DNA from: Escherichia coli
Lineage (GTDB): Bacteria; Pseudomonadota; Gammaproteobacteria; Enterobacterales; Enterobacteriaceae
DNA: 64,000 nt
Assembly (NCBI RefSeq): GCF_051903065.1
Contig: NZ_CP178438.1
Strand: one strand, 5' to 3'
Position 1 is the first letter of the stretch; each line of letters opens with the position of its first letter. Made by a program: the position numbers and the translations under genes. The notes beneath the pieces were generated by a model. That model was not told where the DNA came from. It did no database searches and worked only from the letters and a program-made list of their open reading frames with translations. Shown here piece by piece: positions 28,726-44,998 of the stretch.

Positions 28726-29211
28726 ATGACAACCTCTTCGCATAATTCCACCACACCTTCTGTTTCCGTAACTACTGCATCAGGGAATAACCAGTCTCAA
28801 CTGGTTGCCACTCCCGTCCCTGATGAACAGCGCATCAGCTTCTGGCCGCAGCACTTTGGCCTCATTCCACAGTGGGTGACCCTGGAGCCCCGTGTCTTCG
28901 GCTGGATGGACCGTCTGTGTGAAGACTACTGCGGTGGTATCTGGAATCTGTACACCCTGAATAACGGCGGCGCATTTATGGCGCCCGAACCGGATGAAGA
29001 TGATGGAGAAACCTGGGTACTGTTCAATGCCATGAACGGTAACCGCGCTGAAATGAGCCCGGAAGCCGCCGGCATTGCTGCCTGTCTGATGACGTACAGT
29101 CATCATGCCTGTCGTACGGAGTGTTATGCCATGACGGTCCATTATTATCGGTTGCGGGATTACGCCCTGCAACATCCGGAATGCAACGCCATTATGCGCA
29201 TCATTGACTGA
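28726..29211 (+). CDS. Antirestriction protein (KlcA/ArdB family, YfjX/YafX-like)
   Basis: AAGGA RBS then ATG 28726; …RISFWPQHFGLIPQWVTLEPRVFGWMDRLCEDYCGGIWNLY… is typical of the family. Confidence 0.7.
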   Translation: MTTSSHNSTTPSVSVTTASGNNQSQLVATPVPDEQRISFWPQHFGLIPQWVTLEPRVFGWMDRLCEDYCGGIWNLYTLNNGGAFMAPEPDEDDGETWVLFNAMNGNRAEMSPEAAGIAACLMTYSHHACRTECYAMTVHYYRLRDYALQHPECNAIMRIID

Positions 29212-32098: not shown

Positions 32099-32122
32099 GT
32101 TCGAGTCCGGCCTTCGGCACCA
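32099..32122 (+). repeat. 24-bp copy of the tRNA-Leu (leuX) 3' end: island boundary direct repeat
   Basis: GTTCGAGTCCGGCCTTCGGCACCA equals the leuX T-arm/acceptor 3' end (from memory); no D-arm or anticodon arm upstream, so it is an att fragment, not a tRNA gene. Confidence 0.65.
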
Positions 32123-32346: not shown

Positions 32347-35300
32347 TTATATCTGCCCGCCTACACCTTTAAACTTCTCAATAAACGCGACGATCTTCTG
32401 GAAAACCGTCTGTTTTTTCGTCTTATATTGCGGATTTAACGGACTGAGTTTTGGCAATGTCTCGTTTAATTCCGTGCCATTTTCGGTTGCGTATTCGCGT
32501 TTTAAAGACGTGCGAATATAGCGTTTCGCCGCCTCTTCATTGAGATTTTCTTCTTTGATCAATGCTGCTGCTTCACGTTGCTGTTCGCGTTGAGCAAAGG
32601 TAAAAAACGCGTCAATGATGCTGGCTTTATCCGGCAAATCATCCAGGTTCGTTTGCTGAATAAAATCGACCACCAATCCTTCTTTGGCACGGTTCCCAAG
32701 GCTTGAACGAATTAAGCGTTTGACCTCTTCGGTCATTTCGCCCTTACCTTTGTTTTGTCTGTTGTGTTCGAAAATCAGTCCAAGGATATAATCCAGGTTT
32801 ATTTCCTGAGACTTCAGCAAATCGACCTCAAAAACCACGTCATCCCAGTCGGTGGTTGATTTTTCTTTTTTGTCAGCTTCTTTCTCACGGCGCTGCCAGT
32901 CACGAATATCGTTATAGGCTGAACGGTAATCCTGAATCTTGCGATCAGCAGGGAGACGAATCGTTTGTAATTCAGCGAACTTTTCATCATCCACATAATG
33001 TTCTGCTTTGAATTTTTCTACCGCAACAGGATCGCTAAGATCGATTTGTTGCAGGGCTTTCAGCATGGCAAATTCATCATAGTTTTGCAGGATGTTCTCG
33101 GCACGCAGGTATTCACCAAACAGTTTTACGAAGTCTTTCTTCTCTTTTTCACTTTCAATATTGGCAGGGTCAGGGAACCGTTGTTCCAGTTCTGAAACTA
33201 CTGCCATAAAGCCGCGTTTAGCTTCACCAGTGGCAGCATCAGTAAAGCCTTCCATATACTCTGCATAACTCTTTTCTAACACCACATTTTTGGTATTTTT
33301 ATCACCAAACAGCGTTATGGCATCAATGGTTGAGCGTTCCAGATCCCGGAAAGTGACGATGTTACCGAAGGTTTTAGTGGCGTTATAAATGCGGTTGGTG
33401 CGGGAAAATGCCTGCATCAGGCCGTGAAAACGCAAGTTTTTATCGACGAATAGCGTGTTCAATGTTGGAGCATCGAAGCCGGTTAAAAACATCCCCACGA
33501 CAATTAACAGATCGATATCTTGATTTTTAACCCGTTGGGCTAAATCACGATAGTAGTTCTGAAAACCGTTACTGTCGGTGCTGAAGTTAGTTTTAAAATA
33601 GCTGTTATACTCACGAATTGCAGCGTCAAGAAACTCTTTAGCACTGCTGTCCATTGCGCTGGTATCAAAAGTTTCATCGGAAATTTCACCAATGGCATTT
33701 TGCTCTTCATTGGCGGCAAAGGAGAAGATTGTCGCAACACGCAGCGGTTTATAAGTAGCCGATTTATTAGCTGCTTCCTCTTGTAACCGTTTAAACGTAG
33801 CGTAATAGGCTTTCGCGGCATCCACGCTACTCACTGCCAGCATGGCATTAAAGCCTTTGGAACTTGGGAAAGTACGGTGGGTCTTCTGGCGGAAGTTATT
33901 CAGAATATATTGCGTAATTTCCTGTATACGCATGGGATGAAGAAACGCCTGCTGATTTTCAGCCGCACTCAGTTTTTTCTCGTCGGTTTCTGTCTCTAAA
34001 GACTTAAACTGTGGCCGCACATCGTTGTAGTCCACCTTGAATTTGAGCACTTTTTCATCACGAATCGCATCGGTAATCACATATGAATGCAATTCACGAC
34101 CAAATACGCTGGCGGTCGTTTCTGAGCCTAAAGCGTTTTCCGGGAAAATAGGGGTACCGGTAAAACCAAACTGATAATAGCGTTTGAATTTCTTCTTCAG
34201 ATTTTTCTGCGCTTCTCCAAACTGGCTGCGGTGACATTCATCAAATATAAACACCACTTGCTGATTGTATACAGGCAGGTCGCTTTCTGCTTTCATCAGG
34301 TTATTAAGTTTCTGAATAGTGGTGACGATAATTTTGTTATCGTCCTTATCCAGATTTCGTTTAAGACCTGCTGTATTTTCCGAGCCGTTAACACTATCTG
34401 GCGAAAAACGCTGATATTCCTTCATGGTCTGGTAATCGAGGTCTTTCCTGTCGACCACAAAGAAGACTTTATCAATAAAGTCCAGTTCTGTTGCCAGACG
34501 TGCGGCTTTAAAGCTGGTCAGGGTTTTACCAGAACCGGTTGTGTGCCAGATAAAGCCACCGCTTTCGGGGGTAGACCAGTTTTTCGCTTTATAGGAGCTG
34601 TTGATTTTCCATAAGATACGCTCAGTGGCGGCAATCTGGTACGGTCGCATCACTAGTAGCGTTTGGCTAATATCGAACACGCTGTAGTTCACTAAGACAT
34701 TAAGCAGAGTATGTTTCTGGAAAAAGGTAGCGGTAAAGTCTTTGAGGTCTTTAATCAGCGTGTTGTCTGATTTCGCCCAATTCATGGTGAAATCAAAACT
34801 GTTTTTATCGCGCTTTGTGGTGTTGGCAAAATAACGGGTATCGGTGCCGTTAGAAATGACAAACAGTTGCAGATACTTAAACAGGGAATTTTCGCTGTTA
34901 AAACTCTCTTTACTGTAACGATGTATTTGGTTGAAAGCCTCACGAATCGCCACGCCGCGCTTTTTCAGTTCGATTTGTACCAGTGGTAAGCCATTAACCA
35001 GGATCGTGACGTCATAACGGTTAGCATGAGAACCCGCCTGTTCAAACTGCTGGATAATCTGCACCTTATTGCGCATGAGATTCTTTTTATCTATCAGATA
35101 GATATTTTCAAGACGCCCGTCATCAAAAATAAAGTCGCAGATATAGTCGATATGAATTTTACGGGTTTTATCCAGGATGCCATCGCTGGGGTTGTCCAGA
35201 TACTGCTCCGTGAAACGCCGCCACTCGCTGTCATTAAACACCACACCATTGAGGTTCTGAAGCTGTTCCCGAACATTGGACAGCATCGCCGACTGTGATT

Positions 35301-35463
35301 TTACCGAAATAAATTCATAGCCCTGATTCCGCAGGTCCTGAATCAGTTCCCGTTCCAGGTCCGATTCGCTCTGGTAGCTGTCGCCTGTTTGCTCAGCTTT
35401 GATGTACTTATCAAGGACGATAAAGTTATTGGATTCAGCAATGGTGTGTGTTTGATGAGTCAT
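32347..35463 (-). CDS. hsdR: Type I restriction enzyme R subunit (Type IC, EcoR124-like HsdR)
   Basis: 1038 aa (same length as EcoR124I HsdR as recalled); helicase motifs TGSGKT and DECHRSQ. Confidence 0.95.
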
Positions 35464-35584: not shown

Positions 35585-36865
35585 TTAGTTACTGATAGTT
35601 TCAGGTTTGGGAAAACTGAACAGTAAATCACGATAGTACTCGTATTGTTTCTGGCGCAACTCGATTTCACGCGGGAGGCCTTCGGTGATGGAGTTTGTCA
35701 GAGTGTCGAATTTATCGAGTATTGCGACGATACGAGCTTGTTCCTTAAGTGATTTTTCGTGATCTTTAGGATATGGAACCGGAATCATAATTTTTGAAAA
35801 ACCATTAATGAGTAGTGTATTAACTTTTGTTCTGGCTACATACTTTGCTTTTTCAGAAATAAACGAATCGGTTTGCATGTAATAGGAAATAAATTTTGGA
35901 TTCAAAGAATGTCGAAAAGCATAACAGTGATCATGAATAGCGATATCGTCATCCCCAAGCCATGCCACTGCTTTACCAACGTCTTCTACAGTCTCCCCCA
36001 CGTCAGTTATCACGACATCTCCATGTTTGGCATAGCGTAATGACGCTGCCATATCAGCTCTAACCTGTGATAACGAATGAGTTGTGTAAACACCATATCG
36101 TGTATATATCTCACCATAATGGATTACACTGATACCACCATCTTCTACATAATCTGCTTTAGTAAAACGTTTTCCACGAATAAACTCACCAATTTCCCCC
36201 AAAGTCTTCCACTCAACCTCACCCTCTTTAAAACTCAACAACTGGTCGCGATAGTAGTTGTACTGTTTTTTACGCATGGTAAGCTCTGCTGTAAGCTCTG
36301 CTGTAAGCTCAGTAAATTTATCCAGAATCCGAACGATTTCAGACTGGATGGCAAGGGATTTTTCCGGATTGCCCGGGCAGGGGATGGGGATGAGTAGTTT
36401 TGACATCAATGCATTTGAGCTTAGATTCGGCTGTGCTCCGCCCCCTGCAAGGATATAAATAGTCTCTGTATTTAACAATAAAAAATGGTATAAATAATTA
36501 TTGTTTAGAATATTTTCTTTGGGTATAAATTTCCCAACACGTTGGTTAAGATAACATTTTATTCCTTTTTTATAAATTCCCACTTTTCCTGTAGTGGCAC
36601 CTGACATTGCAATCAATATATTTCCCATAGATACCTCAAAGGAGGATAAATCTTCCTTGTAATCATTTAGTGAAAAGTATTTCACCTCATCTAAGTCAAC
36701 ATTAAACCCATCTATATTTGTGATTCTAACTATCGGTAACCCAGTTTCTTTAAATAAGCTGCTTTTAAATGCAAATCCATTTTTAAAATCACAAACATCC
36801 TTCAGGGTTTTCCACTCAACCTCAACCCCATCCAGCAATTTTTCCAGATAACTCAACTCGCTCAT
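35585..36865 (-). CDS. hsdS: Type I specificity subunit HsdS (Type IC)
   Basis: Two target-recognition domains separated by the conserved …[23 protein letters not shown]… region with the TAEL repeat; ATG overlaps the hsdM stop. Confidence 0.9.
36279..36310. repeat. 12-bp tandem repeat in hsdS (TAEL repeat, 2 copies plus a partial)
   Basis: GTAAGCTCTGCT x2 then GTAAGCTC on the plus strand, encoding TAEL-TAEL in the HsdS central region. Confidence 0.7.
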
Positions 36866-38416
36866 TTCTGCACCCCGCAGCCTTCAATTTCAGCCACAAT
36901 CGCATCAATATCTTTGCGCAACTGGTCGATTTTGCTGACCGTGGTTTTCAGCTCAGCATTCAGCTCACCGATATCGATAATTTCGCGAGTATCTTTCGCT
37001 TCAACATAGCTGCTCACCGACAGGTTATAGTCATTCGCTACAACGGCTTCAAACGCGACAGATTTCGCCAGATGAGCAACATCTTCCTTGCTGGCAAATA
37101 CCTGCATAATCTGTTCGATATGGGCATCGGTCAGGATATTGTTGTTGGTCTCTTTTTTGAACAGTTCGCTGGCGTCAATAAACTGAACTTTGGTATCGGT
37201 TTTATGTTTAGACAGCACCAGAATATTGACGGCAATAGTGGTGCCAAAGAACAGGTTCGGTGCCAGTGAAATCACGGTTTCGACATAGTTATTATCGACC
37301 AGATACTGACGGATTTTCTGCTCCGCGCCGCCACGGTAAAAAATACCCGGGAAGCAAACAATCGCAGCGCGACCTTTGGCCGAAAGATAGTTCAGCGCAT
37401 GTAGTACAAAGGCGAAGTCAGCTTTGGATTTGGGGGCCAGGACGCCAGCCGGGGCAAAACGTTCATCGTTAATCAGCGTCGGGTCATCGCTGCCAATCCA
37501 TTTCACCGAATACGGCGGGTTAGAAACGATGGCATCAAACGGTTTTTCATCTCTGAAGTGCGGCTCAGTCAGTGTATTGCCCAACTTGATATCAAACTTG
37601 TCGTAGTTGATGTTGTGCAAAAACATGTTCATACGCGCCAGGTTATAGGTCGTATGGTTGATCTCCTGACCAAAAAAGCCTTCTTCGATGATATGGTCAT
37701 CAAACTGCTTTTTCGCCTGCAACAACAGCGAACCGGAACCTGCGGCCGGGTCGTAGATTTTGTTAACGTGGGTCTGCCCGTGCATAGCCAGTTGTGCAAT
37801 CAGCTTAGAGACGTGCTGCGGTGTAAAGAACTCGCCGCCTGACTTACCAGCATTCGCGGCATAGTTAGAAATCAGGAACTCATAGGCATCGCCGAACAGG
37901 TCAATCTGATGTTCGTTAAAGTCGCCAAGCTTTAACCCTTCAACCCCTTTCAGAACCGCAGCCAGGCGGGCATTTTTATCCTTAACGGTGTTACCCAGGC
38001 GGTTACTGGTGGTATCGAAATCAGCAAACAAACCTTTGATGTCAGCTTCTGAAGGGTAACCGTAAGCAGAACTTTCGATAGCAACGAAGATGCTGTTTAA
38101 ATCTGCATTCAGTCTGTCATTGGTATTTGCTTTCGCAGCTACGTTGCAGAAAAGCTGACTTGGGTAGATGAAGTAGCCTTTGGTTTTGATGGCATCGTCT
38201 TTAATGTCATCAGTTATTACGCTGTCATCCAGTTTCGCATAACAGATACTGTCATCACCGGCTTCAATATAGCTGGAAAAATTTTCGCTGATAAAACGGT
38301 AGAAAAGCGCGCCCAGAACGTATTGCTTAAAGTCCCATCCATCGACCGAACCTCTGACATCGTTAGCAATTTGCCAGATCTGGCGATGAAGCTCCGCGCT
38401 GCTGAAGACTGGTCAT
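36862..38416 (-). CDS. hsdM: Type I methyltransferase HsdM (Type IC), apparent frameshift near codon 8
   Basis: C-terminal 389 aa intact (NPPY motif, …[11 protein letters not shown]…). ATG 38416-38414 with AAGGA RBS reads MTSLQQR, but the conserved …[23 protein letters not shown]… continues in another frame. Confidence 0.8.
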
Positions 38417-38722
38417 TTTTTATCCTTTGAATGTGTTTTTAACGTCGGCTTTTGCCGGGATTTTACCGGAAGTTGTTTGGTTTTTCAGATTTGTATGACG
38501 GTGAGGAGGGGATTCAGTACCAGATTGTTAGTGCATCTTACTCAGCATTCACCGCTTGAGTCAGGAGGCTACTTTATATGCCCATCGCCCATCCGTAGGT
38601 GATCAGATAATTTATTGCGAGTCACCTTCCCGATTTTCAATCTCATTATTTACCCAATCTTTCACCAGTGGATAATTCGTCTGCTACTAACGGCGAGTGT
38701 ATTTTTTTACGGATGAAAGATT

Positions 38723-39914: not shown

Positions 39915-41969
39915 ATGGTTCAGGATTCATCAGCATTAGCCCCCTTCTTTCGTGCTCAAATTGAAAAAAATAATCAATACAATTCAGTTTGGGGCAAACA
40001 CTACCGCCAGCTTGTAGAACAGATTCAGGCCGAAAAACCAAACTTTTCTGAAGCCACGATTCGGCAGGTATGGTATGAACGTGACAATGGTGTCTCCAGC
40101 CTGATGCAAGGAGGGATGTCATTGGTTGAATTTGAAAATGCACAAAAAGACCTTCTAACGCTCACCCGTCAGATAGCAGAAGAGTGTACACAAGAAAATT
40201 ATAATCGGGTCATTGAACGCCTTATCAAACTTAAAGCGGACGGAGTATTAAATAAGGTATATAGGGCTCTTTGTAATCGTGCTTTTGCAGCAATATACCC
40301 ATCAAAAATTAGCAGTGTCGTGAATGTTAATAATTTTTTTAGTTGCTACAATTATTGCAACAACCATTTCCAGCTAGGTCTTTCCGGAGAACGGGAGTGG
40401 CTGGCTCGCAATGTTGATCTTAAAGAAACGCTAAATCGTGCGCTGGGTGATGATATCGACCCTATTGAGCTGAATATGTCACTTTGGCATCTCTATGCGT
40501 ATGAAATTCAGGATAAAAATGCTATCGGTTTAGTTGGAAGCGAAAGTGCTTTACAAGAAAATGAGCAAGAAGATGATGTTATAAGTTCGCCATTGCCTAA
40601 AAACACAATTCTCTATGGCCCGCCAGGTACAGGTAAAACATATCGTACTATTGAGCTTGCTGTACAAATTTGTGATCCGATCGCTTACTCCCTGCAGGAG
40701 GGTAAGGATGAGAGTGAAAAACGTCGCGAGTTGAAAAAGATTTATGATCAGCTTATCAAAGAAAATCGAGTGCGTTTTATCACCTTTCATCAGAGCTTTG
40801 GTTATGAAGAGTTTATTGAAGGTTTAAGAGCTGAGACTACTGATGACGGTAATGTAAAATACGAAATAAAGGCAGGTATTTTTAAGCAGATATGCGAGGA
40901 TGCCGCCTTTGGTCATGCTGGTGCGCAGGAAATGTTAGATAGCGCACTTACTCGCCTACAAGAACGTTTATCTGAAGGTGAAAATATCACGCTGGAAACA
41001 CAACAGGGTAAGGCCTTCCAGCTGACGTATAAAAGTCAAACCAACTTTGGAATTTTCCCGTCACAATCGAAAAAAGAGGATTTAGGACAGGGTTACAATG
41101 CCTATTTGAAGGATATTCGGCAAGTTTATCAGGATCCACGAGCAAAAGTACATAATCCATCTTATGTACGCAGTATCCTTAACTATTTAATTAATCAACG
41201 TTATCTGCCTCTGAATACTCAGAGCGTAGCTTCAGAAAAAAAGGAAAACTATGTTCTCATTATTGATGAAATAAATCGGGGTAATATTTCAAAAATTTTC
41301 GGTGAACTAATTACCCTTATTGAGCCATCTAAACGGGCTGGTGAGCCAGAATCGCTTAGCGTATTGCTGCCATACTCTTCCACTCCATTTAGTGTGCCGA
41401 ATAACCTTTATTTAATTGGTACCATGAACACTGCTGATCATTCGCTTACTGCACTTGATACTGCACTACGTCGCAGATTTGATTTTGAAGCGATGCTGCC
41501 AGATATTACTGTTCTGAAAGATACTGTCATTAAAGGTATTGATCTGCCTCGTCTATTGCAGACGCTTAACGATCGCATCCAGGTTTTATACGATAGAGAA
41601 CATATGCTGGGGCATGCTTTTTTTATCCCTGTTGTGCAGGCAAAAGAAGACGAAGCTCTGGCATTTGAAAGATTCAAACGGATTATGCGAAATAAGATAC
41701 TACCATTGCTGGAAGAATATTTTTACAATGACTGGCAAAAAATTCGCATGGTACTGGCTGATAACCAAAAAGAGGAAGCACCAGATCTTCAATTTGTACG
41801 TGAGGTGAAATACCAGAAAAAGTATGCCGATCTCTTTGGTGATAACGGAACAGATGACTTGGGAACCAGTTTTCACCTGGCAGCAGAGGATGACAACGTT
41901 TGGGACAATCCAATCGCCTGGCAGCAAATTTATGCACCTCAAAAAGAAAAACGCAGGAGTGCGGAATGA
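39915..41969 (+). CDS. McrB-family AAA+ GTPase with non-canonical N-terminal domain
   Basis: 684 aa; Walker A LYGPPGTGKT, Walker B LIIDEINRGN, McrB-type GTMNTAD motif; the first ~230 aa is a helical region of unknown type. Confidence 0.85.
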   Translation: MVQDSSALAPFFRAQIEKNNQYNSVWGKHYRQLVEQIQAEKPNFSEATIRQVWYERDNGVSSLMQGGMSLVEFENAQKDLLTLTRQIAEECTQENYNRVIERLIKLKADGVLNKVYRALCNRAFAAIYPSKISSVVNVNNFFSCYNYCNNHFQLGLSGEREWLARNVDLKETLNRALGDDIDPIELNMSLWHLYAYEIQDKNAIGLVGSESALQENEQEDDVISSPLPKNTILYGPPGTGKTYRTIELAVQICDPIAYSLQEGKDESEKRRELKKIYDQLIKENRVRFITFHQSFGYEEFIEGLRAETTDDGNVKYEIKAGIFKQICEDAAFGHAGAQEMLDSALTRLQERLSEGENITLETQQGKAFQLTYKSQTNFGIFPSQSKKEDLGQGYNAYLKDIRQVYQDPRAKVHNPSYVRSILNYLINQRYLPLNTQSVASEKKENYVLIIDEINRGNISKIFGELITLIEPSKRAGEPESLSVLLPYSSTPFSVPNNLYLIGTMNTADHSLTALDTALRRRFDFEAMLPDITVLKDTVIKGIDLPRLLQTLNDRIQVLYDREHMLGHAFFIPVVQAKEDEALAFERFKRIMRNKILPLLEEYFYNDWQKIRMVLADNQKEEAPDLQFVREVKYQKKYADLFGDNGTDDLGTSFHLAAEDDNVWDNPIAWQQIYAPQKEKRRSAE

Positions 41970-43276
41970 AATCTTCCAGTCATTTCACTGTGTTCGAATA
42001 CGGGCATTTAGTGAGTGAGGAAGGTGATGCCCGTATAAATAATGCGGTAGTGCTACCTGCAGACCTATTTAAATGGCTTGAGCTGCGCTGTCTGAAAGAC
42101 GATGCTGATAATACTCATCGTTTGCTCACCCTTAGCAGCCGGAATGGAGTAAAAACGCTGCAGGTAAAAAACTATGCAGGAGTAATCTCACTGCCAGGGG
42201 GGCGATTTCTCGAAATCCTGCCTAAAACAGGTCAGGATAATGAGGATACTGTTCGTCAACAAATACTGATGATGTTACGTACGTTAAAATCATTTCGTCA
42301 TATTGCCTCCTCTGAATCTGGCGTCAAAATATCTAAAATGCCTCTGATGGACATCTTTATTCAACAATTTATAGAGAGCGTGCGTAAGATTGTGCAGAGA
42401 GGGTTAAAACGTGACTATTTACGTCAGGAAGATAATCTTCCATGGATAAAAGGAAGATTACGGATCTCTGCACAATTAAGCAAAAACTGTATTAGGCGGG
42501 ATCTTTTTCAGGTGGAGTATGACGAGTACAGCGTCAATCGTCTGGAAAACCGGATACTCAAAACTGCAATCAATAAGATTAGTCGCCAGACCAGTAATCC
42601 ACAATTATTACAGCAGATAACACAGCTGCAGTTTCACTTTGAAAATATCACGTCAGTTCATGATGCTTATATAGCTTTCGAGCAGTTACACTTTGATAGA
42701 CACATGCATCACTATGAGCAAGCATTAGCGTGGGCGAAGATGATTTTATTGGGCGATTCTCCACACTGTATGTATGGGGATGTTAATGCTTTTTCACTGC
42801 TTTTCCCGATGGAGGCTGTTTTTGAATCTTTTGTGACGACATGGATGCGTTATCGTTATTATGATAAATGGCGAGTGGACGCACAGGTAAGTTCAAAAAA
42901 TCTGATTAGTTATAACGGTAAAGCTTTATTTAAGCTGCGGCCTGATATTTGTTTACGGCCTCGTAAAAGTACTACTGGTTCAGTTATTACCTGTGATATT
43001 AAATGGAAGATAGTAAATGGCAGAAAGGACAGTCTTGAACAATCTCAAGCCGATCTCTACCAAATGCTTGCCTATGGATTGAATTACCAGGAGGGGGAAG
43101 GTGATATGATTTTGATATACCCCTATCATAACGGATTTAATCAGCCATCTCCTCATCCTTATGAATTTAGCCATCAGAAGGAAAATAGGTTACGTTTATG
43201 GGTTGTACCTTTCTTTATTGGCGAGAGTTTACAGACATCAGAGTTGCATTTTCCTAGTGGGGCTGAATTTATTTAG
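41966..43276 (+). CDS. McrC-family nuclease partner
   Basis: ATG overlaps the mcrB-like stop (ATGA); C-terminal PD-(D/E)xK-like …RPDICL…CDIKWK…; size and linkage typical of McrC. Confidence 0.75.
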   Translation: MKSSSHFTVFEYGHLVSEEGDARINNAVVLPADLFKWLELRCLKDDADNTHRLLTLSSRNGVKTLQVKNYAGVISLPGGRFLEILPKTGQDNEDTVRQQILMMLRTLKSFRHIASSESGVKISKMPLMDIFIQQFIESVRKIVQRGLKRDYLRQEDNLPWIKGRLRISAQLSKNCIRRDLFQVEYDEYSVNRLENRILKTAINKISRQTSNPQLLQQITQLQFHFENITSVHDAYIAFEQLHFDRHMHHYEQALAWAKMILLGDSPHCMYGDVNAFSLLFPMEAVFESFVTTWMRYRYYDKWRVDAQVSSKNLISYNGKALFKLRPDICLRPRKSTTGSVITCDIKWKIVNGRKDSLEQSQADLYQMLAYGLNYQEGEGDMILIYPYHNGFNQPSPHPYEFSHQKENRLRLWVVPFFIGESLQTSELHFPSGAEFI

Positions 43277-43338: not shown

Positions 43339-44268
43339 TCACCCCCTAAAAACCTCTTTCCGATGCCACTCCACAAACCCCTCAAAAGGGTAATTTTTAC
43401 GCACCTGTGGCAACGCAATAGTTTTCCCGTCAAAATCCCAGAATAATCTCTCAACGATCCCTCCGCCGTTTACCGCATCCGAGACCAGTATCCGCATATT
43501 TTCATCCAGGCCAATCGATCCTTTATCAAAGGCTTTATGGTGTATTGCGCAAAGTGCCAGACCATTGGGGATTTCACAAGGGCCGCCGTGCTGTTTCCAT
43601 TTTATATGCGCCGCTTCCAGCGCGACGGTGGTGTCGTCGTGGCGCATATTAAAGCCACATATCGCGCACTGGTATTTATAAGCGCGTAATACATTTTTGC
43701 GAAATAACGGGTCGCGCTGTTTACGGATTTGCTGGAGATCAAAACCCAGCTCGTCAGCAATTTCTTCCTGAATACTCTCGGTGAAGTGCGCTTCGAGTAT
43801 CTGTTGCGCCAGAGTATTGATGAGTTTTTTATTGCCGGTTACCAGGGCGTAGTGCTGTTCATCGAAACCGCCTGCAACGTGGTATTCGTTCAGTTCCTTC
43901 ACTGGCGGTTGTCGGCTGCTCCCTGCTGTTGAGCAACGCTCGGCATTGTGTAATTGCCAGAATCCGTCGCCTTGTAATCGCCAGAACGGCATATCAGGTC
44001 GGTACTGTGAACGCTGTGGCCCAAAACGTTCCAGTAAACTGTGCAGAGGTTCGTAGATTTCCGAGCCATAATCGAAAAGGCGCGGATGTCCATGCAGGTA
44101 TCCCGCTAATACGTATAGCAATAACAATGGCTTATGCGGCGCGCGCTGTTCACCCTTATGCCAGATTTTTATATTGGCAATTGCCTGCTGTAGCGATTTA
44201 CTGGAAGCCATTGATATCCCTGGCAGTGAAATAATTGCGATCATGCTCGCAAATTTTCTGCTGTTCAA
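43339..44268 (-). CDS. HNH endonuclease (HNH_2-type, putative restriction enzyme)
   Basis: C-terminal …YKYQCAICGF…AAHIKWKQHGGP…NGLALCAIHHKAFDKG…; about 190-aa N-terminal domain of unknown function; start may be an internal Met. Confidence 0.65.
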   Translation of the reverse strand: MNSRKFASMIAIISLPGISMASSKSLQQAIANIKIWHKGEQRAPHKPLLLLYVLAGYLHGHPRLFDYGSEIYEPLHSLLERFGPQRSQYRPDMPFWRLQGDGFWQLHNAERCSTAGSSRQPPVKELNEYHVAGGFDEQHYALVTGNKKLINTLAQQILEAHFTESIQEEIADELGFDLQQIRKQRDPLFRKNVLRAYKYQCAICGFNMRHDDTTVALEAAHIKWKQHGGPCEIPNGLALCAIHHKAFDKGSIGLDENMRILVSDAVNGGGIVERLFWDFDGKTIALPQVRKNYPFEGFVEWHRKEVFRG

Positions 44269-44347: not shown

Positions 44348-44998
44348 ATGAATAAACTCCCCGATCATCTTCCGCGGCGGTATATTATCGAAGCTATTCA
44401 TTTATGGGATGCGGGAGAAACTCATCAGTTCCAGCCTGCACGGTTGTATGAGATTGAATATCATGGCCGACGTTACCCCTCGAAGGCGATTGCTGGCATC
44501 GCAGCGACATTGATGACGGGGACGCAATTTACCCCTGCGGATTTCACCGGCGGAATAAAATCTAAATGCGTCAAGCTACTTATAGATCAGGGATTTCATA
44601 TTCATCAGGATAAAGCCGCTGCGGCTCCCATAGCCGATGTTCTGTTCCCGGATGAGTTGCCGTCGCAGGGGACCTACGTTGAAGGTGCGGCGATAAAGGT
44701 GACGGTAAACAGCTATGAACGCGATAAAAACGCTCGCGAGAAAGCAGTCGAATATCACGGATGCCAGTGCAACGTATGCGGCGTTGATCTGGTGAAGATC
44801 TATGGCGATATCGCTGAGGGCTTTATCCATATGCATCACCTGGTGCCGCTTTCAGCCATTAAAGAGGATTACCTGCTGGATCCAGTTAATGATTTACTTC
44901 CTGTGTGCCCTAATTGCCATGCGATGTTGCACCGACGCAAACCACCGTTTACGCCGGAGGAGTTAAAAGCGTTGATGGATGCGAATAAATCAAATTAA
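44348..44998 (+). CDS. HNH endonuclease with N-terminal putative DNA-recognition domain
   Basis: …CQCNVCGVDL…HMHHLVPLS…PVCPNCHAMLHR… is a classic HNH; about 110-aa N-terminal domain unassigned. Confidence 0.7.
   Translation: MNKLPDHLPRRYIIEAIHLWDAGETHQFQPARLYEIEYHGRRYPSKAIAGIAATLMTGTQFTPADFTGGIKSKCVKLLIDQGFHIHQDKAAAAPIADVLFPDELPSQGTYVEGAAIKVTVNSYERDKNAREKAVEYHGCQCNVCGVDLVKIYGDIAEGFIHMHHLVPLSAIKEDYLLDPVNDLLPVCPNCHAMLHRRKPPFTPEELKALMDANKSN

Follow-up and report, generated by a model that had tools for sequence, protein, structure and literature searches.

The chromosomal hsdM gene in the window, which is the whole stretch of 64,000 nucleotides of Escherichia coli DNA analysed here, lacks one GC unit at codon 8. 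With high confidence, we regard this as a genuine, recent and vertically inherited loss-of-function mutation by deletion of a single GC unit, which would leave the strain without functional HsdM and its Type IC restriction-modification system without restriction or modification (r-m-). Judged from its sequence, the frameshifted hsdM reads as an ordinary pseudogene and not as a switch.

A chromosomal Type IC system of the EcoR124 family

The original prediction had assigned hsdM to Type IC (EcoR124 family) and described hsdS and hsdR as intact. Both statements agree with the comparisons made here. When two bases are inserted into the window sequence, rebuilding CAGCAGCGCGCGGAG, the repaired hsdM encodes 518 aa, of which 511 are identical to EcoR124II HsdM (PDB 7bst, 7bst_D) in an alignment covering residues 1-518 with seven substitutions; the alignment with EcoR124 HsdM that had been proposed as a check is, after the two-base repair, end-to-end. 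HsdR aligns over residues 1-1038 to EcoR124I HsdR (PDB 2w00, 2w00_A; 2253 bits) and has a Pfam EcoR124_C match, and the exact protein is found on 157 contigs in a public protein collection. Both HsdM and HsdR are therefore closely related to the EcoR124I/II subunits. The open reading frames of hsdS and hsdR, of 426 aa and 1038 aa, are uninterrupted. On the genes alone, the arrangement is that of Type IC, with hsdM and hsdS together, overlapping by 4 nt (36862-36865), and hsdR apart from them, after a 121-nt gap downstream of hsdS. The central region of HsdS contains the tandem 12-bp (4-aa) repeats of this type, in the form KFTEL(TAEL)nTMRKK with n=2.

The hsdM lesion and its reading frames

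Alignment with seven related loci shows CAGCAGCGCGCGGAG in the intact alleles and CAGCAGCGCGGAG in the window, one GC/CG unit being gone. The frameshift at codon 8 that had been claimed is thus seen directly as two bases missing from a short GC repeat, and the plus-strand string quoted for it, GCTCCGCGCTGC, matches the window sequence. In the intact gene the codons CAG CAG CGC GCG GAG encode Q Q R A E, which places the deletion at codons 7-9. The minus strand of the window reads ...TTCAAAGGATAAAAA ATG ACC AGT CTT CAG CAG CGC GGA GCT TCA TCG CCA GAT CTG GCA AAT TGC TAA, so that the peptide from the hsdM ATG consists of MTSLQQR followed by 10 out-of-frame residues, 17 in all. The HsdM frame opens after a TGA (38415-38413) that overlaps this ATG, and contains no stop until the TGA at 36864-36862. 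A shift of +1 or -2 leads from the frame of the ATG into that of HsdM; the intact relatives are exactly two bases longer.

According to the ORF listing, the first ATG, GTG or TTG in the HsdM frame is the TTG at 38031, codon 130 of the intact gene, as expected from the earlier statement that the frame has no start codon before about residue 130; only near-cognate codons precede it. An AAAGG motif directly abuts this TTG, which is a poor spacing for a ribosome-binding site. The 389-aa product that gene callers predict from it matches PF02384 only, whereas the intact 518-aa HsdM matches PF12161 and PF02384. Upstream, the good AAGGA site and the ATG described earlier are both present on the minus strand; the interval 38416-38414 quoted for them is that of the ATG, while the ribosome-binding site lies at 38427-38423. 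The putative promoter-like site has the same sequence in intact loci, and the 5′ region of hsdM is identical to that of an intact locus (L011; loci that we read are numbered with an L) over at least 1286 nt. The features of the locus and of its surroundings are collected in Table 1.

Table 1. Positions of the hsd genes, the hsdM lesion and neighbouring features in the window
Feature	Position	Strand	Remarks
hsdM pseudogene, chromosomal Type IC (EcoR124-family) R-M system	36862..38416	-	1555 nt, against 1557 nt when intact
hsdM start codon ATG	38414..38416	-	same start in the annotated intact 518-aa HsdM of L003, L004 and L007
hsdM ribosome-binding site AAGGA	38423..38427	-	6 nt 5′ of the ATG, read directly
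Promoter-like site CTGAAA-17-TAAAAT 5′ of hsdM	38460..38488	-	consensus match only
GCGCG left over from the tract GCGCGCG; place of the 2-bp deletion at codon 8	38395..38399	-	aligned with L001-L007
Out-of-frame 17-codon ORF plus TAA (38365-38363)	38363..38416	-	sole product now possible from the hsdM start
Residual 389-aa ORF from TTG 38031	36862..38031	-	lacks the HsdM_N domain
hsdS, intact, 426 aa	35585..36865	-	exact protein in public collection; 23 contigs read
hsdS repeat GAGCTTACAGCA x2 (+GAGCTTAC), TAEL units, central conserved region	36279..36310	-	1, 2 or 3 units in relatives
hsdR, intact, 1038 aa, EcoR124I-type	32347..35463	-	full-length match to 2w00
DUF4942 gene, 277 aa	38723-39556	+	divergent from hsdM
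Rest of defence island: McrB-like, McrC-like, phosphorothioated-DNA restriction endonuclease, HNH	39915-43276, 43339-44268, 44348-44998	+, -, +	
tRNA-Leu 3′ remnant, 24 nt	32099-32122		just left of hsdR; full gene in relatives

Predicted loss of HsdM and possible residual sources

Ribosomes initiating at the normal ATG would make the 17-residue peptide and then terminate and, with no usable start before codon 130 in the HsdM frame, no functional HsdM would be produced. The methyltransferase of these systems is M2S1 and the nuclease R2M2S1 (PMC2691833); loss of both modification and restriction, as had been claimed, is what this stoichiometry leads one to expect. The system is most likely r-m-, because HsdS and HsdR without HsdM cannot assemble on DNA. 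Its loss would be safe for the cell, since restriction goes together with modification.

We consider it unlikely that HsdM is still supplied, whether by +1 frameshifting, by near-cognate re-initiation (ATC 38379 or ATT 38370), as the 389-aa product, or by a plasmid Type IC HsdM acting in trans. The frame does remain open for 510 codons after the shift, but this is expected anyway with 0 substitutions since the event. The in-frame ATC and ATT are located inside the 17-codon upstream ORF or immediately ahead of its end; on the other hand, positions 38363-38416, read directly, contain in these 17 codons no slippery or stop-codon-stimulated +1 motif, and the frameshifted arrangement is derived and rare rather than conserved, since hsdM is read in one continuous frame in at least 290 complete genomes. 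The 389-aa product, for its part, is devoid of HsdM_N and has a badly placed Shine-Dalgarno sequence. Rescue of translation by +1 frameshifting, transcriptional slippage, re-initiation or the 389-aa ORF was rejected on the sequence and on the rare, derived state of the allele. As for complementation, subunits are interchangeable within one Type I family, and many E. coli plasmids carry R124-like hsdM genes of about 95% identity, with matches at 746 plasmid places. An HsdM from such a plasmid could in principle complement the chromosomal system in trans, but no second hsdM is evident within the 64-kb window.

Distribution and age of the deletion

Allele frequencies were obtained by megablast, using 38- and 40-nt queries for (GC)2 and (GC)3 and a 34-nt query for (GC)4. 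Among 5426 complete E. coli genomes, (GC)2 occurs in 3, (GC)3 in at least 290 and (GC)4 in none. Tract queries of 30-34 nt proved too strict, given a CAG/CAA SNP 14 nt downstream, and returned only 2 and 16 matches; the first 28-mer of the 34-nt (GC)4 query avoids this SNP. The (GC)2 and (GC)3 strings had no match in 100,044 species-representative genomes, a result that says nothing on recurrence in other species.

The loci read individually belong to draft assemblies at NCBI and to SRA runs assembled in Logan, Illumina-based contigs among them. The (GC)2 allele is present in all three loci (L008-L010) that stand for the 23 contigs with the exact 426-aa HsdS and in all nine (L029-L037) shown of the 24 contigs with the 389-aa product. 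It is also found in L041-L043, which belong to the four places shown of the 24 contigs with a 422-aa HsdS; the fourth, L044, does not include the hsdM 5′ end. The truncated 389-aa product is indexed in 103 blocks of the public protein collection. The lesion is already on public record through RefSeq/PGAP annotation of identical sequences: PGAP labels the same DNA in NZ_AP045789.1 and NZ_AP045800.1 as 'type I restriction-modification system subunit M, frameshifted', and hsdM of NZ_CP076272.1 is likewise annotated as frameshifted in RefSeq. No study of this locus was found in the literature on hsdM frameshifts and methylomes in E. coli or on strain E21845.

The deletion is very recent, because locus L011 (GCA_053739595.1), whose hsdM is intact, can be aligned to the window for 9557 nt without a substitution and with two gaps, which total 14 nt and correspond to the 2-bp GC unit and one 12-bp hsdS repeat unit, and because the repaired 518-aa HsdM exists as an exact protein (P0001) in other E. 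coli isolates. The same zero-substitution match of 9.5 kb and the extant repaired protein bear out the recent event that had been proposed.

The second of these gaps lies in the hsdS repeat, whose number of 12-bp units sets the length of HsdS in this zero-SNP haplotype: 430 aa with three units, 426 aa with two and 422 aa with one. Four combinations of the two markers describe the loci. The (GC)3 allele is accompanied by three hsdS units in L011 and probably also in L016 and L017. The (GC)2 allele is accompanied by three units in two Ecuador genomes, which share the 430-aa HsdS with the intact L011, by two units in the window, L008-L010 and L031, and by one unit in L029, L030, L032, L033 and L041-L043. 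Among the loci read in the zero-SNP haplotype, (GC)3 was never found together with one or two hsdS units. Several of the Logan contigs L016, L017 and L034-L037 end within the 12-bp repeat. For L016 and L017, such ends are expected of a k=31 assembler on a 45-nt tract of period 12, so that these loci probably carry three units; an assembler break at three units would also account for the missing 430-aa HsdS in the protein collection. A comparable 12-bp difference in hsdS (401 against 397 aa) occurs in the E21845 lineage.

The simplest history that these combinations suggest begins with a single deletion, after which the hsdS repeat shortened step by step. The ancestral haplotype would have carried (GC)3 and three 12-bp hsdS units; one GC deletion would have been followed by clonal spread and, after the loss of hsdM, the hsdS repeat would have contracted from 3 to 2 to 1. 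We infer that hsdS was freed in this way, a dead system no longer imposing a cost on changes of specificity. The 12-bp variation is the classic EcoR124I/II spacer-length switch, which would now be drifting in a dead system.

A second occurrence and other lesions in hsdM

Strain E21845/O/A, from Thailand, carries the same 2-bp deletion on an hsdM allele 39 positions away from that of the window. Except for the 2-bp gap, its hsdM has 0 mismatches to the intact hsdM of PM4-5, and the diagnostic CAG/CAA SNP 14 nt from the GC tract separates the two (GC)2 haplotypes. The deletion in E21845/O/A is probably a second, independent event. Around the site, from -218 to +35, the two (GC)2 haplotypes do not differ, which makes a trace-free interval of 254 bp, and a short recombination patch could therefore have carried the deletion across haplotypes; of the two, a second mutation was judged more probable than such recombinational transfer.

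Runs of alternating CG are well-known hotspots of -2 frameshifts, as in the CG-dinucleotide deletion at hisD3052 CGCGCGCG (PMC8284014). By analogy, a modest -2 mutational hotspot at the GC tract would be a sufficient explanation, and the GC unit was most likely lost by strand slippage at the alternating G/C run.

Further, independent lesions affect the same chromosomal hsdM in relatives (L019-L028, L039 and L040). Two are nonsense codons (Q6 to TAG and E124 to TAA); the others are insertions, by an IS3 (nt 103-105), by an IS (nt 262) and by IS3/IS2-family elements (about nt 195 and 400). The look-ups in which many of these lesions were seen were selected through the 389-aa product, so that they give no measure of whether hsdM is lost more often than hsdR or hsdS. 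Of 30 rows sampled across the (GC)3 genomes, 3 had a split hsdM annotation, and both of those opened were IS-disrupted. In strain 58-3, hsdS is split as well, by IS1. Such common and mechanistically varied loss of hsdM points to relaxed or negative selection on the system and not to a dedicated switch. The GC tract would be one of several routes, together with nonsense codons and IS insertions, to the repeated loss of hsdM.

Reversible switching and sequencing error as unlikely alternatives

It is very unlikely, in our view, that hsdM is a low-rate contingency locus in which reversible expansion and contraction of the GC tract turn the Type IC system OFF and ON, possibly as a phasevarion. As with SSR-controlled hsd genes (PMC7383803), the lesion does fall in a dinucleotide repeat, located close to the 5′ end of hsdM; moreover, the change from 3 to 2 units is seen on two hsdM alleles, and hsdS and hsdR are intact. 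However, a survey of Type I genes required at least 5 units for dinucleotide SSRs and regarded short tracts without length variation among strains as probably not phase-variable (PMC7383803), whereas the present tract has 3 units when intact and 2 in the window. The main text of that paper contains the word 'Escherichia' 0 times, and E. coli is not among the species for which switching is described. Variation was observed in one direction only, from 3 to 2 units: with no (GC)4 in the 5426 complete genomes, (GC)2 accounts for 3 of the 293 with the tract. The (GC)2 allele also persisted through two hsdS contractions and IS1/IS903B insertions nearby. It is kept in six of the seven places shown with one or two hsdS units, which represent 47 contigs, the remaining one being L044 with its missing hsdM 5′ end, and none of the contigs read with one or two units has a restored hsdM. 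Furthermore, the GC tract is not conserved, the plasmid (R124-like) alleles encoding the same residues as CAACAACGTGCAGAG, without any GC tract, and irreversible lesions also inactivate hsdM. The reversible, phase-variable option of the original prediction is disfavoured by the 3-unit tract, the lack of (GC)4 and the lack of revertants among the contigs read.

We attach just as little weight to two further proposals, namely that the GC tract, found only in the chromosomal allele, is a selected 'soft' contingency site for shedding and regaining the Type I barrier, or that the orphan HsdS and HsdR are kept for re-arming by the Type IC HsdM of an incoming IncF plasmid. If the former were true, E. 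coli lineages would lose their Type I barrier more often than otherwise and now and then recover it; if the latter were true, a plasmid HsdM would reactivate the chromosomal specificity.

A sequencing or assembly error in a strain that really carries GCGCGCG, the other option raised originally, is excluded for practical purposes and would be the least credible explanation of all: although the two closest complete assemblies show single-base indel noise, with IS903B copies of 967, 968 or 969 nt, some of them flagged 'frameshifted', the loss of 2 bp outside a homopolymer is atypical of read errors, the same allele is reproduced by several laboratories and platforms in three complete genomes and in all loci read (up to 19) from three look-ups of 23-24 contigs each, and (GC)2 co-segregates with the hsdS repeat states like an inherited marker.

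The near-identical Ecuador assemblies L001 (NZ_AP045789.1) and L005 (NZ_AP045800.1) show single-base differences in their IS903B copies, which suggests that the length differences of IS903B are residual long-read indel errors. These leave the hsdM call untouched, because short-read assemblies reproduce the hsdM allele.

Genomic neighbourhood

To the right of the hsd locus lie the DUF4942 gene, an mcrB/mcrC-like pair, a gene for a phosphorothioate-DNA-dependent endonuclease and an HNH gene, followed by nanS-nanM-nanC and fim. All chromosomal loci examined (L001-L005 and L007-L015) have the DUF4942 gene beside this Type IC hsdM, and the DUF4942 protein has no match in NCBIfam or PADLOC. The McrB-like GTPase (684 aa) is intact; it and its McrC-like partner (436 aa) score far below the NCBIfam equivalog cut-offs, and for this reason we read the pair as a divergent McrBC. 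In the Ecuador strains an IS903B interrupts the mcrB-like gene, which is whole in the window. The phosphorothioated-DNA-binding restriction endonuclease matches NF045808 with 439 bits.

The sequence to the left of the tRNA-Leu remnant (1-32098) is a mobile island and not core genome. It contains a group II intron, IS110, IS3 and IS256 remnants, a YeeU/CbtA toxin-antitoxin pair, a DUF932 gene and a GTPase gene, and positions 7000-31900 have a counterpart of 100% identity in strain GDSC2BY4G, from which the hsd locus is absent. No tRNA genes were found in the 64-kb window with ARAGORN. By coordinate transfer from GDSC2BY4G, the island, which adjoins the dead Type I system, includes a putative 'antirestriction protein' (WP_000213722.1) at 28726-29211 on the plus strand; this protein has no NCBIfam match at 1e-5.

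Implications

The frameshift is a known kind of event and leaves current understanding unchanged. Its value lies mainly in annotation: predictions of the clone's methylome, of its transformability or of the barrier that it presents to plasmids and phages should treat the system as inactive (r-m-). Taken together, the locus offers a tidy natural case of Type I decay, with a repeated 2-bp deletion, nonsense codons, several IS insertions and an apparent drift of the hsdS spacer from 3 to 2 to 1 units.

Comparison with known systems

The closest known systems are EcoR124I and EcoR124II of plasmid R124, the Type IC prototype. They have the same gene order, with overlapping hsdM and hsdS, a gap, and hsdR, and likewise contain 12-bp (4-aa) repeats in HsdS, whose copy number sets the spacer length and distinguishes R124I from R124II (PMC9159934). 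Unlike these plasmid-borne systems, that of the window is chromosomal, located by leuX in a defence island, and the target-recognition domains of its HsdS differ from those of EcoR124. The hsdM ATG of the window is positioned two codons downstream of the R124 start, the upstream ATG of R124 being ATA in the window. R-A-E is encoded by CGCGCGGAG in the chromosomal allele, which creates the GC tract, and by CGTGCAGAG in the plasmid EcoR124 allele, which has no tract. Finally, hsdM is frameshifted in the window, in contrast to EcoR124.

With the SSR-controlled phase-variable hsd genes (Atack et al., PMC7383803), the window shares a repeat in an hsd frame whose unit length is not divisible by three, so that the gene is turned off when the number of units changes; however, the accepted examples have far longer tracts, and the hsdM tract exhibits neither bidirectional variation nor reversion. 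At the DNA level, a parallel is found in the Salmonella hisD3052 CGCGCGCG and NarI GGCGCC sites, which also lose one CG/GC dinucleotide (PMC8284014, PMC4787813), although those hotspots were defined in reversion assays, with 4 units or with bulky-adduct mutagens, whereas the hsdM tract has 3.5 units and the loss is spontaneous and occurs in natural populations. Restriction-modification systems also undergo ordinary decay through IS insertions and nonsense mutations, which have struck this same hsdM in relatives, with IS3/IS2-family elements at four positions and two different nonsense codons; the lesion in the window shows no essential difference from these and is simply the smallest of them.
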